Source of the DNA: Shigella phage SfMu
Sequence record: KP010268
DNA: 37,146 nucleotides
Reading direction: 5' to 3' (one strand)
In this document: positions 10,381-37,146 of the stretch, piece by piece
Numbering within the stretch: the stretch's first letter is position 1
Layout of the letters: each line of letters starts with the position of its first letter
The notes under the pieces: generated by a model
Database searches by the model: none
What the model was told of the DNA's origin: nothing
The model's input: the letters and a program-made list of their open reading frames with translations, nothing else
Position numbers and translations under genes: made by a program

Positions 10381-10803
10381 ATGCAGCATGATTTATTTGA
10401 ACACGATCCGGCAATTCGCCAGTTAATCGGGCATATTGATAACATCCCGGCCCCGGAACTGGAATCACGCTGGCCCCGTTCAGTGGTTGATCTGATTGAT
10501 GTTCTGGAAAACGAACTGAAACGCCAGAACGTCAGCAATCCCCGTGAGCTTGCCCGTAAACAGGCCGTTGCCCTGTCCTGTTTTCTGGGGGGGCGGCAGT
10601 TTTACATCCCCTGCGGCGATACGATCCTGACCGCGTTACGCGACGATTTGCTTTACTGCCAGTTCAATGGTCGTAACATGGAAGAACTGCGTCGCCAGTA
10701 CCGCCTGTCCCAGCCGCAGATCTACCAGATTATTGCCCGCCAGAGAAAGCTGCATACACGACGTCATCAGCCTGATCTGTTCTCACCTGAAAGCCAGAAA
10801 TAA
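10381..10803 (+). CDS. C: C, late gene transcription activator
   Basis: 140 aa MQHDLFEHDPAIRQLIGHIDNIPAPELE... recognised as Mu C; Mor paralog (shared ...FYIPCGDTIL / QVYIPRGQVL and ...CQFNGRNMEEL / NDFNGRNVSEL). Confidence 0.9.
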   Translation: MQHDLFEHDPAIRQLIGHIDNIPAPELESRWPRSVVDLIDVLENELKRQNVSNPRELARKQAVALSCFLGGRQFYIPCGDTILTALRDDLLYCQFNGRNMEELRRQYRLSQPQIYQIIARQRKLHTRRHQPDLFSPESQK

Positions 10804-35520: not shown

Positions 35521-36114
35521 GTGCTGATTGGCTATGTAAGGGTATCAACAAATGACCAGAATACAGACCTGCAACGAAACGCTCTTGTTTGTGCAGGATG
35601 TGAACAAATATTTGAAGATAAATTAAGCGGAACAAGGACAGACAGACCTGGATTAAAACGCGCTTTAAAGCGTCTTCAAAAAGGTGACACACTGGTTGTC
35701 TGGAAACTGGATCGCCTCGGGCGAAGCATGAAACATTTGATTTCTCTCGTAGGGGAATTACGAGAGCGAGGGATTAATTTTCGCAGTCTTACTGACAGTA
35801 TTGATACGTCATCTCCAATGGGGCGTTTTTTCTTCCACGTTATGGGTGCCCTGGCTGAGATGGAACGAGAACTAATCATCGAGAGAACGATGGCTGGACT
35901 TGCTGCTGCCAGAAATAAAGGCCGTATCGGTGGGCGACCACCTAAACTAACCAAAGCGGAATGGGAGCAGGCCGGGCGTTTATTAGCACAAGGAATCCCC
36001 CGCAAGCAGGTCGCATTGATCTACGATGTGGCCCTGTCAACGCTGTATAAAAAACACCCCGCCAAACGAACACATATAGAAAACGACGATCGAATCAATC
36101 AAATCGATCGGTAA
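35521..36114 (+). CDS. gin: Gin serine invertase (G-segment DNA invertase)
   Basis: 197 aa MLIGYVRVSTNDQNTDLQRNAL...; resolvase/invertase catalytic Ser in VRVST; GTG start; adjacent to gixR. Confidence 0.92.
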   Translation: MLIGYVRVSTNDQNTDLQRNALVCAGCEQIFEDKLSGTRTDRPGLKRALKRLQKGDTLVVWKLDRLGRSMKHLISLVGELRERGINFRSLTDSIDTSSPMGRFFFHVMGALAEMERELIIERTMAGLAAARNKGRIGGRPPKLTKAEWEQAGRLLAQGIPRKQVALIYDVALSTLYKKHPAKRTHIENDDRINQIDR

Positions 36115-36196
36115 TATAGATCGATTATGCCCCAATAACCACACTCAACCCACGATGTTTTTTAAGATAGTGGCGAATTGATGCAAAGGAGGTGAG
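36088..36196 (+). promoter_or_regulatory. mom operon control region: three clustered GATC sites, C-activator site and Pmom
   Basis: GATC at about 36088, 36106 and 36119; ATTATGCCCCAATAACC immediately downstream; then AAGGAGG RBS for com. Confidence 0.75.
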
Positions 36197-36385
36197 ATGA
36201 AATCAATTCGCTGTAAAAACTGCAACAAACTGTTATTTAAGGCGGATTCCTTTGATCACATTGAAATCAGGTGTCCGCGTTGCAAACGTCACATCATAAT
36301 GCTGAATGCCTGCGAGCATCCCACGGAGAAACATTGTGGGAAAAGAGAAAAAATCACGCATTCTGACGAAACCGTGCGTTATTGA
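36197..36385 (+). CDS. com: Com, zinc-finger translational activator of mom
   Basis: 62 aa [32 protein letters not shown]... with CxxC...CxxC; AAGGAGG RBS. Confidence 0.9.
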
Positions 36386-37031
36386 GTATGAAGGCCAGAT
36401 TGTTGGCTATGGTTCAAAGGAGCTGCGCGTTGAAACCATATCCTGCTGGCTGGCCCGCACAATTATTCAGACAAAGCACTATTCCCGCCGTTTTGTGAAT
36501 AACTCTTACCTCCACCTGGGAGTATTCAGCGGACGCGATCTGGTTGGCGTTCTCCAGTGGGGATATGCCCTTAACCCCAACTCAGGTCGTCGTGTCGTGC
36601 TTGAAACGGATAACCGGGGCTATATGGAGTTGAATCGCATGTGGCTACACGACGACATGCCCCGCAACTCTGAATCACGGGCCATCAGCTACGCGCTGAA
36701 AGTTATCAGATTACTGTATCCGTCAGTGGAGTGGGTTCAGTCCTTTGCTGACGAACGCTGCGGACGCGCAGGCGTTGTGTATCAGGCGTCGAATTTTGAT
36801 TTTATTGGCAGCCATGAAAGCACGTTCTACGAGCTGGATGGTGAGTGGTATCACGAGATAACGATGAACGCGATTAAGCGAGGTGGACAACGAGGCGTGT
36901 ATTTACGGGCTAATAAAGAGCGTGCCGTGGTGCACAAATTTAATCAGTATCGCTACATCAGATTCCTGAACAAGCGAGCAAGGAAGCGGCTAAATACCAA
37001 GCTATTCAGGGTTCAGCCATACCCTAAGTGA
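36336..37031 (+). CDS. mom: Mom DNA modification enzyme (adenine modification, anti-restriction)
   Basis: Last gene before right end, overlapping com 3' end in another frame; GGAG RBS 7 nt upstream of GTG 36336 gives 231 aa; the six-frame ORF opens at ATG 36306 (241 aa) without an RBS. Confidence 0.8.
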
Positions 37032-37059
37032 TCCCCATGTAATGAATAAAAAGCAGTAA

Positions 37060-37146
37060 TTAATACTGCTGTTTCATTTGAAGCGCGAAAGCTAAAGTTT
37101 TCGCATTTATCGTGAAACGCTTTCGCGTTTTTCGTGCGCCGCTTCA
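37060..37146. mobile_element. Right end (attR) with transposase-binding repeats
   Basis: GTTTCATTTGAAGCGCGAAAG / CGTGAAACGCTTTCGCGTTTTTCG / TGCGCCGCTTCA terminal repeats mirroring the left-end sites. Confidence 0.8.

Follow-up and report, generated by a model that had tools for sequence, protein, structure and literature searches.

In this study, we examined a window of 37,146 bp, a term used here for the whole stretch of DNA that was analysed, and in particular the region 36088-36385 within it. The window has TG at its start and the right-end sequence of phage Mu (...CGCCGCTTCA) at its finish; within its first 25 kb, about 90% of the length aligns with phages Mu and D108 at about 96% identity, and 35900-37146 is 98.2% identical to Mu. 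These ends and identities mark the window as the complete genome of a Mu-type phage (Muvirus). The com-mom control region sits near the right end of this genome, with gin on one side and mom on the other, and the genes and sites found there are as follows.

35521..36114, plus strand: gin, coding for a DNA invertase of 197 aa (Pfam Resolvase and HTH_7; alignment with Mu and D108)
36085..36130: putative OxyR repressor site lying over the three GATC sites (best OxyR-consensus matches, 13/20 positions, in two registers)
36088..36091: GATC-1, a Dam site, at about -87 to -84 from the Pmom start
36106..36109: GATC-2, a Dam site, at about -69 to -66 from the Pmom start
36119..36122: GATC-3, a Dam site, at about -56 to -53 and 2 nt upstream of the C site
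36125..36138, plus strand: C-activator binding dyad TTATGCCCCAATAA (TTAT-N6-ATAA), at -50 to -37, centred at -43.5 and identical to Mu
36138..36168, plus strand: Pmom core, with a poor -35 (ACCACA), a 19-bp spacer and the -10 TAAGAT
36197..36385, plus strand: com, coding for a zinc-ribbon translational activator of 62 aa (Pfam PF10122 Zn_ribbon_Com, E 2.7e-9)
36306..36319, plus strand: Com-target RNA hairpin, with stem AUGC/GCAU, the 6-nt loop CUGCGA and the motif CC(N)2-3GAG
36319..36341, plus strand: predicted translation-inhibition stem-loop (TIS), UCCCACGG/UUGUGGGA, sequestering half of the Shine-Dalgarno sequence and the whole GUG
36325..36328, plus strand: mom Shine-Dalgarno sequence GGAG, with a 7-nt spacer to the GTG and an RBS at the equivalent position of AF083977
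36336..37031, plus strand: mom coding sequence, 231 aa from the GTG (Pfam PF25680 Mom, E 2.5e-75, 253 bits)
37052..37070, plus strand: terminator-like hairpin after mom and before the Mu right end, a pattern match only

An alignment with Mu, D108 and PhiR68_1 showed that 36088-36385 (298 bp) matches the control region of the Mu mom operon at 99% identity and differs from it by three SNPs: 36100 (C here, T in Mu), 36117 at -58 (T here, C in Mu) and 36153 at -22 in the promoter spacer (C here, T in Mu). The same combination of three alleles was found in one IMG/VR contig (L051), and zero differences from Mu are seen in com, in its overlap with mom, in the Com target or around the mom start. The SNP at 36100 removes the stop codon of Mu gin, so that gin runs on to the TAA at 36112-36114, four codons beyond the Mu stop, and Gin has 197 aa as in D108. 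A preliminary description of this DNA, made from the sequence alone, had called the region a mom control region, and this is borne out by the 99% identity and by the finding of all elements at Mu-equivalent order, spacing and coordinates; every sequence feature that it named is present at, or not more than 1-2 nt from, the position it gave. The region is almost certainly the com-mom operon control region of a Mu-type phage, working as in Mu, and none of the data speak against this reading. The same operon is present at 97-99% identity in D108, PhiR68_1, Mu_3F6, the Yersinia vB_YpM phages and prophages, and a Muvirus operon was found in 47 of 5426 complete E. coli genomes. In D108-type phages, which share the long Gin, mom is followed by a further gene and the spacer of the C site is a variant one (GTCTCA), whereas the right end of the window after mom is of the Mu type. 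For the account that follows, the identity with Mu, the motifs, the presence of C, com and mom, the hairpin predictions with the covariation in them, and the conservation of the GATC sites and of the start codon were computed here, and the dependence on OxyR and Dam, the binding of C and of Com, and the melting of the stem-loop are taken from the literature.

The preliminary description had placed a C-site-like sequence downstream of the GATC sites. This sequence is the dyad TTAT-N6-ATAA at 36125-36138, which matches the C site of Mu and is enclosed by ATTATGCCCCAATAACC at 36124-36140, and the window encodes the cognate activator: gene C at 10381-10800 is 98.6% identical to Mu C and matches Pfam Mor (E 9e-34). 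It has been reported that C binds TTAT-N5-6-ATAA (PMC12867686), and that at Pmom a 16-bp C dyad is centred at -43.5 and overlaps the -35 region, which reads ACCACA and is followed by a spacer of 19 bp (PMC2582627). In the window, ACCACA is located at 36138-36143, a T6 run falls within the spacer at 36158-36163 and TAAGAT follows at 36163-36168. From the dyad at -43.5, the ACCACA and 19-bp spacer (PMC2582627) and a published Pmom oligonucleotide spanning -58 to +20 (PMC4461284), we infer that transcription from Pmom starts near 36175. A dyad near -43.5, a recognizable -10 and the lack of a good -35 are the marks of a C-dependent late promoter, and all three are seen here; by comparison with the oligonucleotides in PMC4461284, the other three of the late promoters, namely Plys, PI and PP, could also be recognized. 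A scan for consensus sigma-70 promoters found none at Pmom, which is expected since Pmom is activator-dependent, and this is hence no evidence against a promoter at this position. According to the literature on Mu, the weak Pmom would fire only when the late activator C binds to the dyad at -43.5.

Three GATC sites within about 35 bp had also been described, and they are indeed found at 36088, 36106 and 36119, spanning 35 bp directly upstream of the C dyad, at positions identical to those in Mu. GATC is depleted across the window (68 sites compared with 130 +/- 10 in shuffles) and no other GATC triplet of the window is packed as closely, the nearest competitor spanning 72 bp; however, under random placement a triple this tight would occur somewhere in 37 kb with P ~0.09, which is weak on its own, and therefore conservation was tested instead.

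As BLASTN searches of the phage collection for distant matches added zero diverged relatives, diverged loci were reached via the Mom protein, which yielded 108 Mom-relative loci drawn from species-representative genomes and IMG/VR. Together with Mu, D108, PhiR68_1 and the window itself, 112 loci were searched for Com. Of the 112, 93 proved to have a Com homologue, and the regions upstream of these homologues fall into 26 lineages that have few 8-mers in common. In 19 of these 26 lineages, two to four GATC sites are present between -135 and -45 relative to the com start, at fixed spacings of 18/19, 13 or 31 (= 18 + 13) bp. The density of GATC in this interval is 0.021/nt compared with 0.0036/nt in the rest of the same loci, a sixfold difference. 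When the proximal GATC is used as the anchor, the columns of GATC align, but the flanks and the inverted repeat that follows, presumed to be the activator site, differ; the cluster geometry (18/13 or 31/13 bp) is retained while its surroundings, including the presumed activator site, diverge. In seven mom loci without a detectable com, the GATC cluster is still located directly upstream of mom, as a triplet at 31/13 spacing in six of the seven and as a tight triplet at 13/18 in L006. The cluster is absent, with 0 or 1 GATC, from the loci of Rhodopseudomonas, an alphaproteobacterium, Pseudomonas, Oleidesulfovibrio, Parathalassolituus and Endobugula, and in an Oceanospirillaceae MAG there is no more than a pair, located atypically at -39 and -8; we infer that Dam is absent from these non-enterobacterial hosts without the cluster. 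Because the spacing is kept amid diverged flanks and the sites are enriched sixfold, their conservation provides strong evidence, of a comparative kind, that the GATC sites are functional.

These data also bear on the idea that the triplet is a chance cluster or has another purpose, such as coding for the C terminus of Gin, rather than a role in methylation-dependent control. Apart from the weak within-window statistic, this idea could draw on the location of GATC-1 and GATC-2 inside the last gin codons of this phage. However, the shorter gin of Mu itself ends before GATC-2, the same geometry recurs in front of com in lineages with unrelated flanks, at loci that are not preceded by gin and at mom loci that lack com, and it is missing from loci of non-enterobacterial hosts; in addition, control of Pmom transcription by Dam and OxyR has been documented (PMC3378877; PMC2909390). 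We consider the probability of a chance cluster or of an unrelated purpose to be close to nil, and take the triplet to be a methylation-dependent control element. OxyR, the reader of the methylation state, went unnamed in the preliminary description. In a scan with an OxyR consensus, 36085-36121 and 36094-36130 were two of the window's four tied best matches, at a modest 13/20 positions. According to the published mechanism, when the GATC sites are unmethylated, host OxyR would bind to this putative OxyR-type site and repress Pmom, and methylation of the three GATC sites by Dam would prevent OxyR from binding.

The transcript made from Pmom carries com first. The com gene starts with the ATG at 36197, which is preceded by the Shine-Dalgarno sequence GGAGG at 36188-36192, and ends with the TGA at 36383-36385. 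Its product is 100% identical to Mu Com and scores 36.8 bits against a Pfam cutoff of 22.9; it has the N-terminal CxxC...CxxC zinc ribbon of the family, formed by the cysteine pairs C6/C9 and C26/C29, and is encoded, as is typical of Com, just upstream of and overlapping mom. A search of the PDB returned no Com structure. It had been noted that com ends inside mom in a different frame, and we find the same, with a frame offset of 2 and the end of com 50 nt inside mom when counted from the GTG. The mom product is, by homology, a tRNA-Gly-dependent adenine-modifying GNAT enzyme: PDB entry 8bv8 matches residues 11-241 of the long open reading frame and differs from it only by the engineered S124A and one K/R exchange.

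Two starts have been used for mom. Its frame opens at the ATG at 36306, and the GTG at 36336 lies in the same frame. RefSeq/PGAP and the D108 annotation begin mom at the ATG, whereas the curated record, the literature and our comparison point to the GTG. In AF083977, the curated Mu record, which also has features for the late promoter and for the RBS and coding sequence of com, the mom RBS is given at 35896-35899 and the coding sequence from 35907; with an offset of +429 these correspond to 36325-36328 and 36336. Among 120 homologues, most of those at 65-93% identity begin with 'MGK...', which aligns with V11 of the long open reading frame. In two diverged loci the frame is closed by an in-frame stop upstream of the GTG, four codons before it in L004 and one codon before it in L019. 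In four others (L007, L020, L022 and L012), the conserved position holds a GTG or ATG that follows GGAG at an unchanged distance, and no other start occurs there or upstream; in L026, which has a further GTG and ATG upstream, GGAG precedes only the ATG at the conserved position. In L005 both the ATG and the GTG are conserved. Overall, the start at the position of 36336 is the only one conserved across diverged mom loci. It has also been reported that a Mom protein without its first ten residues, identical to the product of the GTG start, retains full activity (PMC13219725); this is the form that was crystallized (8bv8), and the 231-aa form was used in a further study (PMC7261163).

If mom instead began at the ATG at 36306, the protein would have 241 aa and the GTG would merely be an internal valine codon. 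This ATG is the first of the open frame, it serves as the mom start in the GenBank record of D108 and in E. coli prophages annotated by RefSeq/PGAP, residues are numbered from it in PMC13219725, and L005 retains it alongside the GTG. However, the sequence upstream of 36306, ACATCATAATGCTGA, contains no Shine-Dalgarno sequence, and the AUG makes up one side, the 5' arm, of the hairpin to which Com binds. Relatives have GUG, GCG or GCA in place of the AUG, and because these replacements are compensated on the other arm, it is conserved as a structure and not as a codon. The in-frame stops of L004 and L019 lie between the two positions, most homologues start at the GTG-equivalent position, AF083977 and the Com literature (PMC6483171) use the GUG, and deletion of the ten additional residues leaves activity unaffected (PMC13219725). 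A start at 36306, without a Shine-Dalgarno sequence, in a hairpin arm and not conserved, was rejected and is very improbable. The choice made in the preliminary description, which had preferred the GTG with its GGAG ribosome-binding site over the first ATG, agrees with the curated record and with the comparative and folding results. Based on the curated record and the Com literature, the homologue starts, the stops in relatives, the ATG without a Shine-Dalgarno sequence and the ten dispensable residues, the GTG at 36336 is well supported as the start of mom.

The preliminary description had proposed folding of the RNA at 36300..36360 as a check for a hairpin that sequesters the mom start, and such a hairpin is predicted: a stem-loop at 36319-36341 buries the GUG. 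The minimum-energy fold of 36290-36365 includes this stem-loop, which as an isolated hairpin has a free energy of -9.5 kcal/mol, although the stability of the complete 76-nt fold is unremarkable (z = -1.1). In a model of a 286-nt transcript, the unpaired probability is 0.00 for the mom GUG versus 0.48 for the com AUG. The Com target published as 5'-GAAUGCCUGCGAGCAUCCCACGGAG (PMC6483171) equals 36304-36328 of the window, and the hairpin at 36306-36319 has what is expected of such a target, namely a C-G closing pair, the published loop motif CC(N)2-3GAG (PMC6483171) and a location immediately 5' of the start-codon stem-loop. Neither the Com target nor the TIS is represented by a family in Rfam; the only match, to IS102, was rejected as noise, as its 21.5 bits fall below the gathering score of 46.

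A structural alignment of 34 columns and 18 distinct relatives, the rows of which were chosen by the pattern CCCAY...RTGGG, was used to examine both hairpins. In the Com hairpin, compensatory changes on both sides were seen in the relatives at three of the four pairs, 97.5% of cells are paired compared with 23-58% for slid controls, and its covariation score was reached by no shuffle. In the TIS, the closing U-A pair is changed to C-G in seven sequences; the five inner pairs are invariant, in part through the selection of rows, and this is not independent proof of structure, nor is the conservation of the TIS bases, which are doubly coding and specify conserved Com and Mom residues. More distant loci provide independent support for sequestration of the start, on the level of predicted folds, as hairpins of unrelated sequence bury the start codon or the Shine-Dalgarno sequence in L006, L011, L023, L024, L025, L007/L022 and L026. 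The nucleotide U36319 is common to both helices and is compatible with both partners in 18 of the 18 sequences. Because this nucleotide is shared and covaries with both partners, the modelled structures suggest that binding of Com wins a one-base competition at U36319 and by this starts the unzipping of the TIS.

It has been well documented that the Com protein binds mom mRNA (PMC3378877; PMC6483171), and it is the model in the literature that Com melts the stem-loop and so admits the 30S subunit, though the melting step was not observed in PMC6483171 itself. Public automatic annotation (RefSeq/PGAP, D108) labels Com as a DNA-binding transcription regulator, whereas the curated record, the literature and the comparison point to an RNA-binding role. 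Applied to the window, the mom GUG at 36336 and part of the GGAG would be locked in the stem-loop at 36319-36341, and Com would, following the published model, bind to the adjacent small hairpin at 36306-36319, which has one nucleotide in common with the stem-loop, and open the mom initiation site. Mom (231 aa) would then be made only late, and only once Com has accumulated.

The preliminary description had spoken of translational coupling together with control by Com. Control by Com stands, on the strength of the literature, but coupling in the classical sense does not: the com stop is 47 nt downstream of the GTG at 36336 and not at or near the mom start, and because of this geometry termination-reinitiation coupling does not fit and was rejected. 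A related proposal would be that ribosomes translating com open the stem-loop at 36319-36341 in cis, and that this, rather than binding of the Com protein, activates mom. In line with such a proposal, the com frame extends across the entire initiation region of mom before ending inside mom, and nearly all diverged loci examined retain such an overlap, of 26-62 nt, which implies that the passage of com ribosomes is conserved as well. Besides the distant com stop, the Com-target hairpin speaks against it, since it covaries and keeps its loop motif as expected of a protein-binding site. Com is also said to work in trans, as it was reportedly effective when supplied in this way in the work of Hattman in 1987 and of Wulczyn and Kahmann in 1987-1991. 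Activation of mom by com ribosomes in place of the Com protein is very unlikely; these ribosomes may make a minor contribution in cis to an activation that we attribute to the binding of Com.

The gate in front of Pmom has known counterparts. In agn43 (Ag43) of E. coli and in gtr of Salmonella and P22, an OxyR site contains GATC sites whose methylation blocks the repressor (PMC2909390), and the putative OxyR site in front of Pmom would work in this way. However, agn43 and gtr are heritable phase-variation switches of host genes and mom is not known to be phase-variable (PMC2909390), and mom, unlike these systems, adds the phage activator C and a translational lock. Com itself has been compared with Tat-TAR (PMC6483171): in both cases a small protein recognizes a hairpin loop and alters the fate of the RNA (PMC6483171), but Com acts on translation initiation by destabilizing a neighbouring stem-loop and Tat acts on transcription elongation.

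Judged by its alignment with Mu, the control region is a near-identical copy of a textbook system and as such already known, and the main value of finding it is as confirmation that a functional phage of the Mu type is present in the window. What is new is modest and comes from the comparison: the GATC geometry, its host-limited absence, its persistence without com, and the covariation and the shared nucleotide of the two hairpins; the conservation of the GATC sites extends the Mu paradigm modestly. That the Dam-site cluster is a conserved module of Enterobacterales mom loci, which persists without com and is lacking where the host falls outside the Dam-bearing gamma-proteobacteria, and that the two hairpins compete for the shared nucleotide U36319 are readings of sequence comparison, which have perhaps not been described before, although we put this forward tentatively and with somewhat less than even confidence. 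The hypermodification of DNA by mom shields phage DNA from many restriction systems and is toxic to the host. Control of mom is a classic case of layered regulation, in which an epigenetic gate formed by Dam and OxyR, a dedicated activator and an RNA lock opened by a protein are combined, and the switch region keeps the toxic mom gene silent until late in infection.

GATC is strongly under-represented in the window: it occurs 68 times, whereas dinucleotide-preserving shuffles (n=100) give 130 +/- 10, and none of them (0/100) reached a count as low. Because of this genome-wide depletion, the local triplet of the mom control region is the more conspicuous. One further site lies nearby and is kept among close Mu relatives:

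36254-36257: fourth GATC, within the com coding sequence (CCTTTGATCAC), 132 bp 3' of the third site of the triplet (GATC-3)

Two promoter-region positions distinguish the window from Mu, namely 36117 (-58 relative to the inferred start of the mom promoter, Pmom), where Mu C is replaced by T between GATC-2 and GATC-3, and 36153 (-22), where Mu T is replaced by C within the 19-bp Pmom spacer. One IMG/VR contig, L051, shares the three-SNP allele of the window. The gin stop codon TAA of Mu reads CAA at 36100 in the window (region 36100-36114), and Gin is therefore 197 aa long rather than 193 aa as in Mu, with the final gin codons crossing GATC-1 and GATC-2. A 197-aa Gin is likewise encoded by D108; however, the sequence 3' of mom in the window is of the Mu type and lacks the D108-specific gene, and the right end is therefore mosaic. 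Just within this right end, 21 nt 3' of the mom stop codon, lies a hairpin that is probably the operon terminator:

37052-37070: terminator-like hairpin, AGCAGTAATTAATACTGCT, with a T-rich tail 3' of it

In the curated Mu record and in the literature, mom starts at GTG and encodes 231 aa, and Com is described as an RNA-binding translational activator. In contrast, the RefSeq/PGAP annotation of an Escherichia coli MEI3O-23 prophage (L112, 1058-1892) starts mom at ATG (241 aa), as does the D108 record (L002), and the RefSeq/PGAP name for Com is 'Com family DNA-binding transcriptional regulator'. In several prophage copies mom is merely a 'hypothetical protein'.

Among the collected mom loci of relatives, com was not detected in L006, L009, L010, L099, L102, L103 and L105, all of which carry a GATC cluster immediately 5' of mom (250 nt upstream examined). 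In all but L006 (6/7) this is a triplet with 31/13-bp spacing only ~20-60 nt upstream of mom, while L006 has a tight triplet with 13/18 spacing, ~80-110 nt upstream, and a UUG start buried by a 13-bp hairpin. These loci may represent variants that are Com-independent, yet Dam-gated.

Com-type hairpins were found in two further loci:

L028, ~1360-1410, and L024, ~1365-1410: Com-type hairpin (Pseudomonas and Rhodopseudomonas loci)

These hairpins (ACGC-CCGCGA-GCGU, or GCGCCGCGAGCG) retain the CC(N)2-3GAG loop motif, and their 3' arm could instead pair with a segment downstream, adjoining the AUG; this alternative points to a switch between two mutually exclusive hairpins.

The GATC cluster is absent upstream of com in the Parathalassolituus, Endobugula, alphaproteobacterium, Rhodopseudomonas, Oleidesulfovibrio and Pseudomonas loci (loci considered: L012, L013, L023, L024, L025, L026, L028 and L109); L026, from an Oceanospirillaceae MAG, has just one GATC pair there, in an atypical placement. 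These loci retain com, the com-mom overlap and a start-sequestering hairpin, and this combination fits a Dam/OxyR layer that is specific to Dam-bearing hosts.
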